Shown here: piece by piece, positions 35,348 to 43,512 of the stretch
Position numbering within the stretch: position 1 is the first letter of the stretch
How the letters are laid out: each line of letters begins with the position of its first letter
NCBI GenBank assembly: GCA_965199855.1
Contig: OZ241326.1
Location: 320,001 to 384,000 of the forward strand
Reading direction: 5' to 3'
DNA length: 64,000 nucleotides
Origin: a bacterium
GTDB taxonomy: Bacteria; UBA8248
The notes under the pieces: generated by a model
The model's database searches: none
What the model saw: only the letters and a program-made list of their open reading frames with translations
Told to the model about the DNA's origin: nothing
Made by a program: the position numbers and the translations under genes

Positions 35348-36106
35348 CTAATGCACGTATTGCCCGCCGTTCACGTCGAGCGTCACGCCCGTGATGTAGC
35401 CCGACCCCGGCGTGGAGAGATACCAGATCGCGTCCGCCACGTCCTCGGGCTCGCCCCCGAAGCCCACGGGAATGCCCGCCACGATGGCCGGCACGCGCTC
35501 CCCGTGCACGAGCCGGAAGCGCCTGGTGAGCGTCGCGCCCGGAGCCACGGCGTTCACCGTGACGCCGTGGGGGGCGAGCTCCACCGCGAGCCTCCGGGTG
35601 AAGCCCTGCATCGCGGACTTGGATGCGCTGTAGGCCAGCGAGATGCCCGGCAGGGCGTCGCGGGCGGAAATGGAGGATACGTTCACGATGCGGCCGTAGC
35701 CCGCCTTCTTCATCGGAGCGGCCGCCGCGCGGCTGGCGAGGTAGCAGCTCGTCAGGTTCCAGTCCATGATCTTTCGCCACTCCGCCTCGTCAAGGTCCTC
35801 GATGTCGGAAACCTCGACGAAGCCGCCCGCGCAGTTCACCAGAATGTCGAGGCGGCCCCACGCGGCGAGCGTCCGCGAGAAAAGACGGTCGACGTCCTCT
35901 TTTCTGGCGGCGTCGCCCGGAGAATAGATGGCCTCTCCGCGCTCGCCCAGCCTGGCGAGCGCCGCCGCGCCGCGCTCCCGGTCGCGCCCCATGACGGCGA
36001 CCTTCGCGCCCTCCCCGGCGAAGCGGAGCGCCGCCGCCAGGCCGATGCCGTCCGTCGCGCCCGTGACGACGGCGACGCGCTCTCTTATGGAGGATCGCTC
36101 ATGCAC
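35348..36106 (-). CDS. SDR oxidoreductase, paralog 1
   Basis: TGATDGIG, NCAG and YSASK. Confidence 0.9.
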   Translation of the reverse strand: MHERSSIRERVAVVTGATDGIGLAAALRFAGEGAKVAVMGRDRERGAAALARLGERGEAIYSPGDAARKEDVDRLFSRTLAAWGRLDILVNCAGGFVEVSDIEDLDEAEWRKIMDWNLTSCYLASRAAAAPMKKAGYGRIVNVSSISARDALPGISLAYSASKSAMQGFTRRLAVELAPHGVTVNAVAPGATLTRRFRLVHGERVPAIVAGIPVGFGGEPEDVADAIWYLSTPGSGYITGVTLDVNGGQYVH

Positions 36107-36118
36107 GGAAAAAACCCC

Positions 36119-36880
36119 CTAGTGCGCGTATCTGCCGCCGTTCACGTCGAGCGTCACGCCCGTCACGTAGCGCGCGCCGGGGCGGACGAGATACCACACG
36201 GCGTCGGCGACGTCGGCGGCCTCCGCCACGCGGCCCAGCGGAATCTTCGAGACGATCTCGGGCAGCCTCTCCCTGTGCAGGGCGGCCACGCGAGGGGAGA
36301 GCACCACGCTGGGCGCCACCGCGTTCACGGTGACACCATGGGGCGCGACCTCGACCGCCAGGCGCCTGCAGAAGCCGAACAGGCCGGCCTTCGCCGCGCT
36401 GTAGGCGAGGCCCGTCTCCAGAATGCCGTCGCGGCCCGAGAGGGAGGATACGTTCACGATGCGGCCGTAGCCCGCCTCTTTCATGGCGGGCGCGACTGCG
36501 CGCGAACAAAGGTAGGCGCTTTTCAGGTTCAGGTCCACGACGCTACGCCACGCGGCCTCGTCCAGATCCTCGAGGGCCGGATTGTCCACGAAGCCGCCCG
36601 CGCAGTTCACCAGAATGTCGAGGCGGCCCCACGCGGCCAGCGTCTCGCTCACCGCCGCCCGGATTTCATCCGCCGCCGTGGCGTCCGTCCTGATGAAGCG
36701 AACCTCCGCGCCCGCCTCGCTCGCGCGACTGGCGGCCGCTTCGCCCCCGGCCTCGTCCACGTCCAGCAGGGCGACCCGCGCGCCCTCCGCCGCGAGACGC
36801 TCGACGATGGCCGCGCCGATGCCCGCCGCCCCCGCCGTAACGACGGCCGCATGGCCCTGAATCGAGGATCTGTCTTCCAT
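36119..36880 (-). CDS. SDR oxidoreductase, paralog 2
   Basis: TAGAAGIG, NCAG and YSAAK. Confidence 0.9.
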   Translation of the reverse strand: MEDRSSIQGHAAVVTAGAAGIGAAIVERLAAEGARVALLDVDEAGGEAAASRASEAGAEVRFIRTDATAADEIRAAVSETLAAWGRLDILVNCAGGFVDNPALEDLDEAAWRSVVDLNLKSAYLCSRAVAPAMKEAGYGRIVNVSSLSGRDGILETGLAYSAAKAGLFGFCRRLAVEVAPHGVTVNAVAPSVVLSPRVAALHRERLPEIVSKIPLGRVAEAADVADAVWYLVRPGARYVTGVTLDVNGGRYAH

Positions 36881-37378: not shown

Positions 37379-37975
37379 CTACCCCGCCCGCGCGGAGGCG
37401 AAATAGGTGTTGCCGTCGAAATCCCACCAGCGGGCGCGCCGAAAGCCCGCCTTTCGCAATTCGCCCAGCAACTCGGCGGGGCGAAAGCGCGCGCGAAGGG
37501 GCGGCCCCATGTCCATGGGCTTTCTGTGCCATTCGATCAGGACGAGCGAGCCTTTTTCCCGCGTCGCGCGGCGGGATTCCGCAAGCAGGGGCCCGGGGTC
37601 GGCCATCCCGTGAACCACGAACGCGAGAAGAGCGAGGTCCGCGCTCCCGTCGGGAAAGGGGACGCGGGGGTTTTCGCATCGCCTCGCCGTCAGGTTGGCG
37701 CGGCCGCGCTCCTTCGCCTGCGCCCGGACCTCCCGTATCATTACGGGCGAAGTGTCGCACGCGAGCACGCGCCCGTATTTTCCCACCACGCCGCAGGCGG
37801 GAAGCGAGAAATACCCGGGGCCGCAACCCACGTCCAGAAAACTCATGCCGCGCCCGAGGCCCAGGCCGCGCAGCGTCCTGGCGGGCGGCATGACGCGGCG
37901 TCTCTGGCGGGTGAGAAGCAGATGCCGCCTGCGGGCGGGAAACGTCCATTCCAGCCGCGGGGACGCGCCGCTCAA
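37379..37975 (-). CDS. Class I SAM-dependent methyltransferase
   Basis: LDVGCGPG, V.HG and EW..GPP. TTG overlaps the upstream stop; start uncertain. Confidence 0.8.
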   Translation of the reverse strand: MSGASPRLEWTFPARRRHLLLTRQRRRVMPPARTLRGLGLGRGMSFLDVGCGPGYFSLPACGVVGKYGRVLACDTSPVMIREVRAQAKERGRANLTARRCENPRVPFPDGSADLALLAFVVHGMADPGPLLAESRRATREKGSLVLIEWHRKPMDMGPPLRARFRPAELLGELRKAGFRRARWWDFDGNTYFASARAG

Positions 37976-39054
37976 GCCTCGTCCTCGAGGTAGCCGCTGA
38001 GCGCCTCGCGGATGAAGCCCTCCTCGCGCCCCTCCCGGATGAGCAGGAGCCCCTCCGCCAGGCACTCGAGCCTGCGCCGCTCCCGGTCGAGGCGGGTCTG
38101 GCCCTTTCGCGCCAGAAGCCTTTCCACGTCGTCTATCGCGGCGCCGTCGAGCCCCCATTTCAGCCCCATCTTGAGAAGAGGCTCCTGAATCCACTCGAGC
38201 CGCTCCTCTATCGCGCCGCTCCCCTCGCGGCCGGCGAGGCCCGCGAGCTCCACGCACAGGCCGATGATGTCCACCGCGGCCTGCGCCGACGGGGAGAAGC
38301 GGACGCCGGGCAGGCGCTCGTAGTCCGCCTCGCCCTCCGGCAGGAAGGCGACGAGCCGCGCCCGCGCCCGCTCCTCGCTCGCTCCCTCGAGTATCGCCAG
38401 CGCGCCCTCTATGGCGATCTCCTTGTTCCGCTCCATCGCGCCGAGGGCGGATTCTATCTGCCGCGCGAGGATCATCTCGGCCTCGTCGCAGGGTGCCTGA
38501 TCCGCCAGCATCCGCAGACCGGCGGCGAAAATTCCGTCCGGACTCCGCTCGAGCGCGGGCTCCAGGGAGAGCAGGCCGTGCCGCTCCGCGCGCGCGGCGA
38601 GGGCGGCGACCACCGAAACCGCCTGCCCGGCCGCGCTTTCGGGGGCGTGAAACGCGGCGATCTCCTCCTCCAGCGCCTGCTCCAGCGGGGGAATGGCGTC
38701 ATCGGCGGGGCCGTCGAATGTGATGTCGCCGTGCTCCTTCATGGCGTAGGCGGTTTCCATCAGCATCTGGCGCGCCTCGACCGCCTGGCCGTTCTCGTCC
38801 GCCTCGCTCCTCTTGATTTCCTCGCGGATGCGCGCCGCGTTCCTGGACGAGACGTTCCGCAGCACGCGCTCCACCACGCCCGCCTCCGCGTCCCGAAGCG
38901 CCAGGGCGAGAACCTCGAGGTCGAGCCGCTCGATGACGCGCCGCAGCGCGCGGCCGGACATCTCCGCGATGGGGGCGAGGTCGGGGTTCTCGCCGGGGGA
39001 GAAAAAGCGATGCCCGGGGGGCTCCTCCATCCAGCGATCGCGGTCAAGACTCAT
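37972..39054 (-). CDS. FliG C-terminal domain fused to two MotA-like cytoplasmic repeats (no TM segments)
   Basis: aa ~25-113: LALALR...VLRNVSSRNAARIREEI...VEA.Q...GDI. aa ~146-238 and ~263-356: A.R.GLL.LE...F..GL....D...E.IL plus I.EG.LAI.EG.....L..FL. Confidence 0.7.
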   Translation of the reverse strand: MSLDRDRWMEEPPGHRFFSPGENPDLAPIAEMSGRALRRVIERLDLEVLALALRDAEAGVVERVLRNVSSRNAARIREEIKRSEADENGQAVEARQMLMETAYAMKEHGDITFDGPADDAIPPLEQALEEEIAAFHAPESAAGQAVSVVAALAARAERHGLLSLEPALERSPDGIFAAGLRMLADQAPCDEAEMILARQIESALGAMERNKEIAIEGALAILEGASEERARARLVAFLPEGEADYERLPGVRFSPSAQAAVDIIGLCVELAGLAGREGSGAIEERLEWIQEPLLKMGLKWGLDGAAIDDVERLLARKGQTRLDRERRRLECLAEGLLLIREGREEGFIREALSGYLEDEA

Positions 39055-39106
39055 CTTTTCGTCTCCAGGGCTCCCGGGAGCGGCGCGCGCCGGAGCGGCT
39101 TTCCCC

Positions 39107-40750
39107 TCAATTCTCCTCGGCCAGCTTCGGGGGCTGGACGGAGCGGTTCACGTAGAACTGCTGGGCGATGGAGAGCAGGTTGTTCACCAGCCAGTAAATC
39201 ACCAGGCCGACGGGCACGGGATAGAAGACGAACATGCCCGTGAAGATGATGGGCATGAACATCATCATCTTCGCCTGGGTGGGGTCGCCCGCCATGGGCG
39301 TCATCTTCTGCTGCAGGAACATCGACGCGCCCATGAGTATCGTATAGACGTGGTAGGGGTCCTGCACCGAGAGGTCCTGCACCCAGCCGAAGAAGGGCGC
39401 GTTGCGCAGCTCTATCGACACGAGAAGCGCCTCATACAGCCCGAAGAACACGGGAATCTGTATCAGCATGGGCAGGCAGCCCATCATCGGGTTGACCTTG
39501 TGCTCCTTGTAGAGGGACATGGTCTGCTCGTTCAGCTTCGTCTTGTCCTCCTTGTAGATCTCCCGAAGCTGCGCGATGCGCGGCTGGAGCTTCTGCATCT
39601 CCTTCATGTTGCGCATGCTGACGTGGGTGAGGGGATAAAAGACGATCTTCACCAGGATGGTCAGCAGGATGATGGCCACCCCCCAGTTGCCCGCCACGGC
39701 GTGCAGGGCGCGAAGAATCGACATGAGCGGCTTGGCGATGAAGGCGAACATTCCGTAGTCCAGAGAATCCTCCAGGCCGACGCCGAGCCTTTCGAGATGA
39801 TCCAGCGCCTTGGGGCCCGCGTAGACGTCGAAGGCCGCCTCGACCTCCCTTCCCCGCGAGAGGGGGACGATGGCGGCGTATTCGCTCAGGACGTCCGTCT
39901 GGCCGAGCAGGCGAACCTCCGCGCCGCCCGCCCCGCTTCGGGGGATGAGCGCCGCGATGAAGTGCTTCGACTGCAACGAGGTCCACTTGAGGCCCTCGCC
40001 GTGGGCGACGGGCTTTCCCTCCTCGGGATAGTCATAGACGATCTCCTTGCCCACGAAGCTCATCGGCCCCTCGATGACGCCGCCGTAGGTGTTGCCGTCG
40101 CTTCCGCCCACCCGCGGGCCCCAGACGACGCCGATGGCCTCTTCTCCCAAGGGGCGGGAAACCCGTATCCTGGTCTTCACGTTGTAGCTGTTGTACCTGA
40201 AGGCGAGCGTCTTCTCCGCCGAGAGGCCGTCCTCGCCCCGGTAGAGGAACCGCACCACCCCCTCGGGATTCGTCCTCGAGAGGGAGAGATCGCCGCCCTC
40301 GACCTGATAGGACGCCTCGTTCAGCCGCTGCGCCGTCCGCCCGCCCCAGAAGAAAAGAGGCCGCACGTCCGGGCGGCCCGCGGGCACGAGTTCGACGAAG
40401 CCCCTCTCGCCCTGCCTGTATTTGAGCAGGCGCGCGGAGAGAAAGCCCGCGCCCCGGCTCGTCAGCTCATACACCGCGTCGCCCACGTCCACGCGGACGC
40501 GGCGCTGCGGCGCGGAGGCGGTGGGAGCGGGAGCCGGGGACGCGGCGGAAGTCGCCGGCCCGACGGCGGGCGGCGACCTAAGGGGCGCGCTGGCCGCGCT
40601 CCCTCCCTTGCCGCGCTGGGCCGCGGCGCGCGCCTTGGCCGCCCGCTGCTTCTGGGCCTGCTCCTCCTCCATCGGCCTCACGACGAGGTATTGCCAGCCG
40701 ATCAGGATCGCCAGCGACAGGACGGCGGCGAGAATCGCGTTTTTTTCCAT
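39107..40750 (-). CDS. yidC: Membrane protein insertase YidC
   Basis: GNWGVAIILLT, NPMMGCLP.LIQIP and YWLVNN. Confidence 0.95.
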   Translation of the reverse strand: MEKNAILAAVLSLAILIGWQYLVVRPMEEEQAQKQRAAKARAAAQRGKGGSAASAPLRSPPAVGPATSAASPAPAPTASAPQRRVRVDVGDAVYELTSRGAGFLSARLLKYRQGERGFVELVPAGRPDVRPLFFWGGRTAQRLNEASYQVEGGDLSLSRTNPEGVVRFLYRGEDGLSAEKTLAFRYNSYNVKTRIRVSRPLGEEAIGVVWGPRVGGSDGNTYGGVIEGPMSFVGKEIVYDYPEEGKPVAHGEGLKWTSLQSKHFIAALIPRSGAGGAEVRLLGQTDVLSEYAAIVPLSRGREVEAAFDVYAGPKALDHLERLGVGLEDSLDYGMFAFIAKPLMSILRALHAVAGNWGVAIILLTILVKIVFYPLTHVSMRNMKEMQKLQPRIAQLREIYKEDKTKLNEQTMSLYKEHKVNPMMGCLPMLIQIPVFFGLYEALLVSIELRNAPFFGWVQDLSVQDPYHVYTILMGASMFLQQKMTPMAGDPTQAKMMMFMPIIFTGMFVFYPVPVGLVIYWLVNNLLSIAQQFYVNRSVQPPKLAEEN

Positions 40751-41667: not shown

Positions 41668-41842
41668 GAACCGACCGACGCCGCGCGGACGGACAAGAAA
41701 TCGCCCGTCCCGGAGAGGGCCCGGTTTCACTCCCCTCGCTCTCGCTTTTTCCCTAAAAAAACTTGGTTTTTGTTCGCGGCCACCGGAAAATCTGAAAAAA
41801 CACCTCTTTTCCCGTGAAAGGCGCTTGCCCCGGGCGCTGTTT

Positions 41843-41892
41843 TGTGGAAAACTCCCATCTTCGTCAGTCTCATGCCTCGCCCTTGTGGAAAA
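41843..41892. promoter_or_regulatory. DnaA boxes upstream of dnaA
   Basis: TGTGGAAAA at 41843 and 41884, fitting the TTWTNCACA consensus. Confidence 0.75.
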
Positions 41893-41957
41893 CGCTCGCC
41901 GGCGCGTTGCCAGAGAACGCCTCGCCACGCGGCGGCCTTTGCCCATCGGTTCACGCC

Positions 41958-43277
41958 ATGACGAATCTGTGGCTTCGTTGCGCGGATAAAATCAGGGAAG
42001 AGGTATCCCCGAAAACGTTCGAGCGATGGTTCGCCGGCGTCGAGGAAGTGGACGCGAACGAATCCTCCCTGACGATCCAGGCACCCAACTCCTTCACGGC
42101 GGGAGCTCTGCGCTCACGCTATTGGGGCATCCTGACGGACATCCTCAAGCAGGAGGCCGGGCCGAACGTCGCGCTCGCGCTATTGGCCGGCAACGGCGCG
42201 AGCGAAAAGCGCGCGGAAGAAGGGCCGGCGGAGCGCGACCCCGCGCCCAAGCGCCCGGACTTCCTGAACCCCAGATACCACTTCGAGAATTTCGTGGTGG
42301 GCGCGTCGAACGAGCTCGCCCACGCCTGCGCCGCCCGCGTGGCGGACGGCATGGGCGCCACGCTCAACCCGCTTTTCATCTACGGCGGGGTGGGTCTCGG
42401 CAAAACACACCTGCTGCACGCCATTGCTCACCGCATTCTCAGCAAGCGTCCCGGAGCCCGCGTCTTCTACGCCTCGGCGGAGAGCTTCGTCAACGACCTC
42501 ATCTCCTCGATCAGGCGAAACCGCATGGCCGCGTTCAGAAACAAATACAGAAAAGTGGACGCGCTGATGATAGACGACATCCAGTTCATCGCGGGCAAGG
42601 AGCGAACCCAGGAGGAGTTCTTCTTCACCTTCAACTCCCTGCACGAAGCGAGAAAGCAGATCATCATCACGAGCGACAAAATGCCCAAGGACACGCCGGG
42701 CCTGGAGGAGCGTCTCCAGGCGCGCTTCGTGTGGGGGATGATGGCGGACATCGGCGCGCCCGACTTCGAGACCAAGGTGGCCATCCTCCAGAAAAAGGCG
42801 AGCGAGCAGGAGCTCTCCCTCCCCCGCGAGGTCGCCCACTACATCGCCGAGAAGGTTCGCTCCAACATCCGGGAGCTCGAGGGATGCCTCATCAAGCTCA
42901 ACTTTCACGTTTCCCTGCACGACATCGAGATTGACCTGCCGGTCGCGCAGGAGGTGCTGCGGAGCATCATCCGCGACCCCGCGCGCAACTCCTCGGTGGA
43001 CAACATCCAGAGAATCGTAGCCGCCCACTTCCAGGTGCGGGTCGCCGACCTCAAATCGAAAAACCGCTCGCGGTGCTTCGCGATTCCCCGGCAAATCGCC
43101 ATGTATCTGTCAAGAAAACTCACGCGAGCCTCGACCACGGACATCGGACGCCGCTTCGGCGGCAAGGATCATTCCACGGTCATTCACTCCACCAATAAAA
43201 TCGAGGAACTGCTCAAAACGGATCAGGCTCTCTCGGACGCCATCCAGGCCATCCGCCAGAAGATAGACCTCTCCTGA
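41958..43277 (+). CDS. dnaA: Replication initiator DnaA
   Basis: NPLFIYGGVGLGKTHL, DDIQF, SNIRELEG and FGGKDHSTV. Confidence 0.97.
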   Translation: MTNLWLRCADKIREEVSPKTFERWFAGVEEVDANESSLTIQAPNSFTAGALRSRYWGILTDILKQEAGPNVALALLAGNGASEKRAEEGPAERDPAPKRPDFLNPRYHFENFVVGASNELAHACAARVADGMGATLNPLFIYGGVGLGKTHLLHAIAHRILSKRPGARVFYASAESFVNDLISSIRRNRMAAFRNKYRKVDALMIDDIQFIAGKERTQEEFFFTFNSLHEARKQIIITSDKMPKDTPGLEERLQARFVWGMMADIGAPDFETKVAILQKKASEQELSLPREVAHYIAEKVRSNIRELEGCLIKLNFHVSLHDIEIDLPVAQEVLRSIIRDPARNSSVDNIQRIVAAHFQVRVADLKSKNRSRCFAIPRQIAMYLSRKLTRASTTDIGRRFGGKDHSTVIHSTNKIEELLKTDQALSDAIQAIRQKIDLS

Positions 43278-43512
43278 AAAGAAGTGGAAAGAGTTGTGGA
43301 CAACGGTGTTGAAACCCCGCGGCCTCGCCGCGCTCCATGGAAAAATGATGCGCGAAAAACGCTTGTCCACAACCGCGCCAACATGCCAGGTCTCGAAAAA
43401 GACGCTTTTTTTCAGCCTCGTATCCGGTTTTCCACAAATTCACGCTCCCTGTCACTACTATTTTCTGGATATTTTCCTGCATCCTAAAAGATCTGGTATC
43501 TGAGAATATCCC
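43278..43512. other. oriC unwinding region (DnaA boxes, DnaA-trios, AT-rich tract)
   Basis: Boxes TGTGGACAA 43295, TTGTCCACA 43363 and TTTTCCACA 43428, followed by AATTCACG-CTCCC-TGT-CAC-TAC-TAT-TTT. Confidence 0.8.

Follow-up and report, generated by a model that had tools for sequence, protein, structure and literature searches.

The contact between stator and rotor is the site of torque generation in the flagellar motor. In Escherichia coli, charged residues are paired across this contact, MotA R90 with FliG D288/D289 and MotA E98 with FliG R281; a 2025 survey of MotAB evolution, in which the words "soluble" and "fusion" are absent, regards the torque-generating interface as specific to flagellar stators, and the contact has so far been treated as a flagellum-specific innovation (PMC12505986). 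PDB entry 8ucs, obtained from a laboratory MotA(1-262)-FliG(239-333) fusion, contains the MotA5B2 stator together with the FliG C-terminal domain (FliG_C), and in that structure a single FliG_C sits in the grip of two neighboring MotA cytoplasmic domains (PMC11302681). Here we analyze a gene, termed X, whose product carries both partners of this contact in one soluble chain. X is an open reading frame (ORF) at positions 37972..39054, on the minus strand, of a 64,000-nucleotide stretch (the window; contig OZ241326.1, positions 320,001 to 384,000) from a UBA8248 bacterium whose genome (GCA_965199855.1) is a closed single contig of 3.04 Mb, rated 100% complete. It runs from an ATG start to a TGA stop and encodes 360 amino acids (aa), arranged as one FliG_C-like domain (G) followed by two MotA-like heads (A1 and A2), an order abbreviated here as G-A-A. 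We assign a probability of about 0.55 to the reading that the two MotA-like heads grip the protein's own FliG domain, so that X is a flagellum-independent binding switch or scaffold and not a motor part.

A preliminary description of the locus, made from the sequence alone, had proposed a protein without hydrophobic segments in which a FliG C-terminal module with its torque helix precedes two internal repeats, each joining the cytoplasmic loop of MotA to its C-terminal tail without transmembrane helices 3 and 4 (TM3/TM4). This architecture was borne out. No membrane segment was found in X, the highest 19-residue Kyte-Doolittle mean being 1.51 (aa 257 to 275, a stretch with Asp and Glu inside), and the protein is strongly acidic (net charge of -27, 14% Glu). 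The G module (aa 24 to 116; 38707..38985, on the minus strand, as are all parts of X given below) is a FliG C-terminal domain by both Pfam and fold. Pfam FliG_C (PF01706) matches aa 29 to 112 with an E value of 8.4e-12 (45.8 bits, against a cutoff of 23.3), PDB FliG chains match aa 29 to 113, and structural alignment of the predicted X model to FliG 1lkv gives a Z score of 14.9 with a root mean square deviation of 1.8 over 92 residues (model residues 24 to 115). The equivalent of the torque helix lies at aa 67 to 82 (38809..38856), at an offset of +210 to Salmonella FliG (8umd_B), which places K/R71 of X on E. coli FliG R281 and E78/E79 on D288/D289.

X therefore shares with FliG (PF01706; 1lkv, 1qc7, 3hjl, and 8umd) the C-terminal domain and the torque-helix charges R281 and D288/D289. 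It differs in that FliG_N and FliG_M (PF14842 and PF14841) have no match in X at E ≤ 1, so that the FliF- and FliM-binding parts are missing, and in that MotA-like domains follow G; the model for full-length FliG (TIGR00207) reaches only 33.7 bits against a cutoff of 226.7. A better fit of the N-terminal module to MgtE_N had been considered at the outset. No Pfam MgtE_N (PF03448) match was found in X at E ≤ 1, and the MgtE cytoplasmic domain (8gps) aligns to the X model with a Z score of 5.8, compared with 14.9 for FliG. Between G and A1 lies a conserved linker rich in Pro and Asp (aa 117 to 135; 38650..38706), delimited from the alignment and the predicted model. The end of G and the linker together have the sequence GDITFDGPADDAIPPL; the positions G109, G115, P116, D119, P122, and P123 are invariant, and aa 108 to 125 of the model are without regular secondary structure.

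The remainder of X consists of two MotA-cytoplasmic-like domains, A1 (aa 136 to 245; 38320..38649), with both loop and C-tail parts and no TM3/TM4, and A2 (aa 252 to 360; 37975..38301), identified through NCBIfam and PDB matches. The two are internal repeats: aa 134 to 243 align to aa 252 to 360 with a score of 111, compared with 34 ± 6.8 in 300 shuffles (z of 11.4). Five NCBIfam models for MotA, MotP, or stator proteins match X in two stretches apiece (aa 126 to 201 and 257 to 325), with E values ranging from 1.4e-13 to 2.7e-8. These matches fall on model positions ~58 to 140 and lie far below the full-length cutoffs (the best has 50.4 bits, against 340); NF005997, for example, places aa 257 to 325 of X on MotA positions 72 to 140. 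In the PDB, residues 60 to 141 and 218 to 248 of MotA 6ysl_G match X, the latter stretch on aa 210 to 240 in A1 and the former on A2. The channel region of MotA_ExbB (PF01618) has no match in X at E ≤ 1, and a model for the soluble MotA head exists in neither Pfam nor NCBIfam.

The junction within each repeat became visible when profiles of the two X repeats were scored against native MotA proteins taken from four genomes of flagellated bacteria in the phylum. Profile positions ~5 to 75 fell on native residues ~69 to 140, the loop between TM2 and TM3, in all seven matching MotAs, and positions ~66 to 108 fell on residues ~205 to 247, the tail after TM4, in six of the seven; the seventh ORF is cut short. 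An eighth native locus (L096) gave no match to the repeat profiles. The ~65 MotA residues between loop and tail are skipped by the profile, and a hydrophobicity scan places a segment of transmembrane grade at ~176 to 203 of the skipped stretch in some of the ORFs (L089, L091, L093, and L095). Each repeat of X is thus a MotA cytoplasmic domain, formed from the TM2-TM3 loop and the post-TM4 tail, minus the TM3/TM4 hairpin. The likeness to MotA and PomA (NF005997; 6ysl, 6ykm, 8bri, and 8gqy) resides in the cytoplasmic torque-generating domain and its R90/E98-type motif; unlike these proteins, X has no transmembrane helix, ion channel, or MotB partner, and it carries two copies of the domain in one chain, with one contact charge each. 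No MotB/PomB gene adjoins X, whose neighbors are yidC and a methyltransferase gene.

Structure prediction agreed with these assignments. An AlphaFold2 (AF2) model of X, built on a 20-sequence alignment, forms one compact body with a predicted local distance difference test score (pLDDT) of 86.7 and a predicted template modeling score (pTM) of 0.80. When the model was compared by VIA-align with 48,161 PDB representatives, the 10 best chains were all FliG (Z scores of 14.9, 13.6, 13.5, and 13.0) or MotA/PomA (14.0 to 11.7). Rank 11 was the FliG middle domain with a Z score of 7.0, and the best unrelated chain scored 6.7. Thus, the repeats are significantly related to MotA by profile and by fold, an outcome that the preliminary description had left open. 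Its proposed Foldseek check on the AF2 model was less decisive: MotA and FliG chains filled the top rows, but none reached an E value of ≤0.001 (best, 0.022). A distant G-A-A relative, only 20% identical to X, was also predicted to be compact (pLDDT of 92.4, pTM of 0.84), and its model matched FliG with a Z score of 17.7, MotA/PomA with 11.7 to 13.8, and ExbB with only 5.0.

The preliminary description had also proposed looking for the same architecture in other proteins, and a wide family was found. A profile of X searched against 1.84 billion representative sequences retrieved 2,919 matches at E ≤ 1e-3, of which 205 reached E ≤ 1e-10; ordinary FliG and MotA are to be expected among the weaker ones. 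Domain order was parsed with subprofiles for G and A in 148 of the best 150 matches. Both domains were present in 122 of the 148, in 16 different orders, and 143 of the 148 were without a segment of transmembrane grade. The commonest orders were A-G (38, plus 4 with membrane segments), G-A (31), and G-A-A (29, plus 1 with a membrane segment), and further orders included A-A-G, A-A-A-G, and five A in a row before G. The A-G proteins of ~340 aa have no FliG_N or FliG_M, hence are not ordinary FliG. By hhalign, the X family aligned to 26 distant G-A-A proteins over 337 columns with a probability of 99.95% (E value of 4e-38). X thus represents a single branch of an extensive family in which soluble chains join FliG_C and MotA-head domains. 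The taxa seen are Nitrospinota, Latescibacterota, Spirochaetales, Treponema, Thermodesulfobacteriota, and Bacillota. Source annotations for the family read only "hypothetical" or "FliG C-terminal domain-containing," and no description of the soluble FliG_C/MotA-head architecture was found in the full-text literature, subscription-only papers being outside that scope.

Several members of the family carry additional domains. Among 46 scanned proteins, with P0148 and P0153 added from a further scan, the G/A module stands behind an extracytoplasmic function (ECF) sigma factor in P0041 and P0063 and behind an AraC-type helix-turn-helix domain in P0055 and P0061; other fusions are to tetratricopeptide repeats (P0040, P0070, and P0112), leucine-rich repeats (P0114, P0142, and P0148), DnaB_C (P0079), and ABM (P0153). 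The ECF sigma and AraC fusions suggest that the G/A module can serve as a regulatory input domain. Three proteins of 894 to 1060 aa (P0033, P0034, and P0044) have five tandem MotA heads followed by one or two FliG_C and would be single-chain mimics of the pentameric MotA ring; P0185, from a metagenome-assembled genome of a Treponema sp., belongs to the P0034 cluster. A subgroup of G-A-A proteins of ~435 to 450 aa (P0053, P0057, P0058, P0065, and similar) has a conserved N-terminal extension of ~80 residues, for which no Pfam match was found among those scanned. On one marine metagenome contig (L036:1474-3281), two family members lie side by side, a G-A protein of 232 aa and a G-A-A protein of 360 aa.

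Membrane proteins of the MotA_ExbB type with a C-terminal FliG_C also occur naturally. Four were found among the representatives (P0118, P0133, P0150, and P0159) and two more at metagenome loci (L058:5713-7107 and L065:1498-2961), the latter two without a MotB-like neighbor and adjoining sulfatase, rhamnosidase, and sensor-kinase genes. They resemble X in holding both domains in one chain and in belonging to the same profile family, and they have the same design as the laboratory fusion behind PDB 8ucs. They differ from X in retaining the channel region (three segments of transmembrane grade in the four P-numbered proteins) and in having one head only.

The residues that form the motor contact are conserved in the X family, and those of the stator side are divided between the two repeats. 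Contact columns were mapped through PDB alignments and checked on the native MotAs: all seven carry Arg at the R90 column, and at the E98 column three carry Glu and four Gln. Among 20 X-family sequences, position 71 of G (equivalent to R281) is basic in 19, and position 78 or 79 (equivalent to D288/D289) is acidic in all 20. On the stator side, A1 has the equivalent of MotA E98 (Glu165) in 20/20 sequences and a basic residue at 157/158 (R90/91 equivalent) in only 9/20, while A2 shows the reverse, with a basic residue at 275/276 (Arg276 or Arg275; R90/91 equivalent) in 20/20 and Glu283 (E98 equivalent) in 11/20. The tendency recurs beyond the X family: of 30 representative G-A-A proteins, 25 carry Glu and 18 carry Arg in the first A, against 9 with Glu and 27 with Arg in the second. 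Fisher values for the division of charges are 6e-5 and 0.015, both overstated since the sequences are related. Proteins with a single A retain both charges (G-A, Arg in 26/31 and Glu in 22/31; A-G, Arg in 36/42 and Glu in 39/42). Of 129 G domains, 116 have a basic residue at the R281 column and 110 an acidic one at the D289 column.

These residues are kept in a lineage without a flagellum. No flagellar genes were found in the 64-kb window, as originally described, and this absence extends to the whole closed genome, which has no match to FHIPEP (FlhA), Flagellin_N, or YscJ_FliF. When the genome was checked for fliG and motAB, X was its sole FliG_C match and MotA was absent. Its three MotA_ExbB genes are, by NCBIfam and gene order, a TolQ-TolR pair and two of the ExbB/TolQ type with ExbD neighbors; the only ExbD/TolR-type genes adjoin TolQ/ExbB, away from X. 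A scan of 51 genomes of the phylum found X in 29, all of one family, and FlhA in 9, the latter spread over 6 of 15 genera. In the genus of the window (g1), X is present in 21 of 23 genomes and FlhA in none of the 23. X and FlhA occur together in six genomes of other genera (G011, G012, G013, G037, G041, and G047), where native FliG and MotA are also found, and FlhA occurs without X in three genomes of the phylum. Because X is in 21/23 and FlhA in 0/23 genomes of g1, while both are present in six genomes of other genera, we conclude that X is older than the loss of flagella and was retained afterwards without them.

X is a real gene under purifying selection. Thirty homologues with 46 to 99% identity are nearly all ~360 aa long, and 72 columns are invariant in the alignment of 20 X-family sequences, in which identity falls to 47%. 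Across 120 pairs from 16 congeneric genomes, all from the flagellum-less genus g1 as judged by matched locus coordinates, the ratio of nonsynonymous to synonymous substitution rates (dN/dS) is 0.171 for X, compared with 0.142 for yidC; the three modules have values of 0.18, 0.145, and 0.12. A probable ribosome-binding site, GGAG, lies 8 nucleotides 5' of the ATG (39063..39066, minus strand). In one congener (G023:C4:1268187-1269276; locus L028, proteins P0029 and P0030), X is split into two adjacent ORFs that cover profile positions 1 to 199 and 200 to 363, a split that may reflect a frameshift, pseudogene formation, or faulty assembly. A tblastn search of plasmids with X gave no match, and the defense-system models of PADLOC, including Zorya ZorA, gave no match at E ≤ 0.01 for X and seven relatives.

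On the reading that we favor, the two MotA-like heads of X would grip its own FliG domain, as two adjacent MotA subunits grip FliG in the motor. Its function would then lie in the opening and closing of this grip or in showing the closed body to a partner. As g1 keeps the contact residues but has neither FliG nor MotA to engage them, the simplest assumption is that each face binds the opposite face, located either in the same molecule or in another copy of X, and one G to two A, with the charges divided between A1 and A2, fits the prediction of a single-chain pincer. PDB 8ucs offers the closest comparison: there, too, both partners are in one polypeptide, and one FliG_C to two MotA heads matches the make-up of X. 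That assembly is an engineered, membrane-embedded pentamer, whereas X is natural, soluble, two headed, and encoded in a flagellum-less genome, and its docking is inferred. YcgR, FlgX, and other PilZ proteins that bind the motor interface have no sequence or fold relation to X, whose genome lacks a motor. The soluble heads would descend from MotA by loss of membrane helices, perhaps by way of the natural membrane MotA-FliG_C fusions, which are plausible intermediates. We infer that this direction is the simpler one because the head is contiguous in X and split by the channel hairpin in MotA, which is an argument and not a test. Grip or release between G and A as a working principle would also explain the sigma-factor and DNA-binding fusions seen elsewhere in the family.

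Several observations weigh against this reading. In 18 of 20 X-family members, the Arg stands one column off the canonical R90 position. R297 is the fifth classical FliG charge, and its equivalent is not kept, being basic in 0 of 20 X-family sequences (Glu in 10, Gly in 5). Among 122 proteins, no compensatory charge flips between G and A were found, which gives no evidence of covariation. The charge asymmetry between the repeats could stem from a single ancestral duplication, the sequences not being independent. Finally, X is also carried by six flagellated relatives, which leaves room for an ancestral role related to the motor.

The interface could instead be used between chains, with G of one X held by the A pair of the next to give head-to-tail oligomers or rings that serve as a cytoplasmic scaffold. 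Such assembly is suggested by the single-A proteins (31 G-A and 42 A-G), which retain both charges and could complete a pincer only with a second chain, by the five-head proteins that mimic a MotA5 ring, and by the tandem G-A and G-A-A paralogues at L036. An internal clamp is fitted at least as well by the 1:2 stoichiometry, the conserved linker of ~29 residues, and the single-chain pTM values of 0.80 and 0.84, and we consider use between chains possible but rather unlikely. The preliminary description had suggested a repurposed cytoplasmic module acting either as a motor decoy or brake or as a nonflagellar scaffold. A repurposed module and a nonflagellar scaffold fit the data, but a decoy or brake cannot hold in this organism, which has no motor genes. 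It would have to act in the flagellated relatives, where A-A would capture rotor FliG_C, G would occupy MotA, or both, with the leftover given another use in flagellum-less lineages. Homology of both modules to the motor surfaces, the retained contact charges, and the six genomes that carry X, FlhA, and native FliG and MotA together speak for such a role, and brakes such as YcgR are known to work at this interface (PMC12943098). Yet no motor exists in the genome of X or in any of the 23 g1 genomes, where selection on all modules equals that on yidC. In none of the 26 close and 9 distant loci does X adjoin flagellar genes, and in G012 motA is 96 kb away from it and fliG is on another contig. 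We judge a decoy or brake to be improbable.

Functions tied to the envelope, to cations, or to no activity at all fared worse. As an adaptor, X would work with the cotranscribed YidC or dock through its FliG-like domain on the 5:2 motors of TolQR/ExbBD. The yidC-X order in 25 of 25 loci, the 52-bp gap with no terminator in it, the three TolQ/ExbB-type motors of the genome, and its lack of jag are all compatible with this. Sister genomes without X, however, keep the yidC-methyltransferase-short-chain dehydrogenase/reductase (SDR) row unchanged, and yidC is near none of nine distant relatives. According to the 2025 survey, TolQ and ExbB have no counterpart of the expanded MotA cytoplasmic domain to which FliG_C binds (PMC12505986), and the ExbB fold match of the distant G-A-A model is low (Z score of 5.0). 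An envelope adaptor is therefore given little credence. MgtE_N is a relative of FliG domains, and the strong acidity of X (net charge of -27, 14% Glu) and weak MgtE_N comatches on some family members would suit a helical body that binds Mg2+ or other cations as the MgtE N domain does. X itself has no MgtE_N match, resembles MgtE far less than FliG (Z scores of 5.8 and 14.9), and has no CBS domain or channel attached, which makes a cation sensor very unlikely. Least credible is a functionless relic of a lost flagellar system: the ancestors of the lineage were probably flagellated, as FlhA in 6 of 15 genera indicates, and X is split in two in G023, but a dN/dS of 0.17 in flagellum-less genomes (0.12 to 0.18 by module) and 72 invariant columns argue against decay.

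A broader and speculative extension, which we regard as doubtful at present, is that the contact between FliG_C and the MotA head has been widely reused outside the flagellum as an independent recognition module. Its soluble bearers would clasp themselves or one another, as pincers or with five-repeat proteins mimicking the MotA5 ring, and would thereby gate outputs such as ECF sigma factors and AraC-type regulators. As part of this extension, the soluble module and the motor interface would share one origin, and the soluble pair may even be the older, with the torque contact recruited from it. A soluble family that has both contact faces and their charges and persists without flagella implies that the interface is used for something else. 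For structural and biophysical studies, the X family provides a compact natural version of the FliG-MotA grip that needs no membrane; it can also inform the question of how the motor interface came about, and the sigma-factor and DNA-binding fusions suggest an unrecognized regulatory input domain.

The genomic position of X is constant within its lineage. The gene starts 52 bp after the stop codon (39107 to 39109) of yidC (39107..40750, minus strand; Pfam 60KD_IMP with an E value of 2.6e-61, and YidC_periplas), which encodes a membrane insertase, and this spacing is as first reported. Downstream lies a gene for a class I S-adenosylmethionine methyltransferase (37379..37975, minus strand; Methyltransf_11 with an E value of 1.3e-15). 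The reported overlap with its start is likely: the sequence TTGA joins a TTG at 37975 to the TGA of X, and in four relatives the frame opens only at the X stop. The gene order is dnaA and, divergently, rpmH-rnpA-yidD-yidC-X-methyltransferase, followed in some genomes by a small membrane ORF and then by SDR genes. The only promoter-like site (41667 to 41639, minus strand) precedes rpmH (L34; 41411..41563, minus strand, from the ORF translation), and the yidC-X gap contains no terminator-like site; judged from these signals, the row from rpmH to the methyltransferase gene is likely one operon of which rpmH is the first gene.

Placement behind yidC is real, holding in 25/25 loci that have upstream DNA, and the methyltransferase gene follows X in 23/26. 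At L024, a DsbA-like ORF and a membrane ORF intervene between yidC and X, and the X stop overlaps the SDR start; L025 has a similar gap of ~1.2 kb. In two sister genomes without X (G039 at L105 and G046 at L104), yidC is followed directly by the methyltransferase and SDR genes, and in a third (G042, L106) by a small ORF and then SDR. X thus behaves as an insertion or deletion in a conserved gene row. Loci of distant relatives were obtained by searching metagenomes with a six-sequence alignment whose search pattern lay inside FliG_C, and context was read from the 9 of 58 loci with full-length or near-full-length matches. Their neighbors are varied housekeeping genes, with yidC, flagellar, and MotB-like genes in 0 of 9. 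Because sister genomes keep the row without X and distant relatives have no yidC nearby, the link appears to be positional, reflecting the site of X in this lineage, and not a functional pairing. In other bacteria, jag often follows yidC; neither Jag_N nor R3H (jag/KhpB) had a match in this genome. Functional coupling to yidC or replacement of jag was rejected as the leading explanation on the basis of the intact yidC row in sister genomes without X.

Two features of the wider neighborhood deserve mention. Beyond the methyltransferase gene, positions 35348 to 36880 (minus strand) encode two tandem SDR paralogues of 252 and 253 aa, and relatives carry either one or two such genes after the methyltransferase gene. 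Allowing one mismatch, the window contains seven DnaA-box-like sites (1.8 expected), five of which flank dnaA at 41843, 41884, 43295, 43363, and 43428. The cumulative GC skew has its minimum at 42 to 44 kb of the window, and the region from 41800 to 43500 is likely the replication origin.

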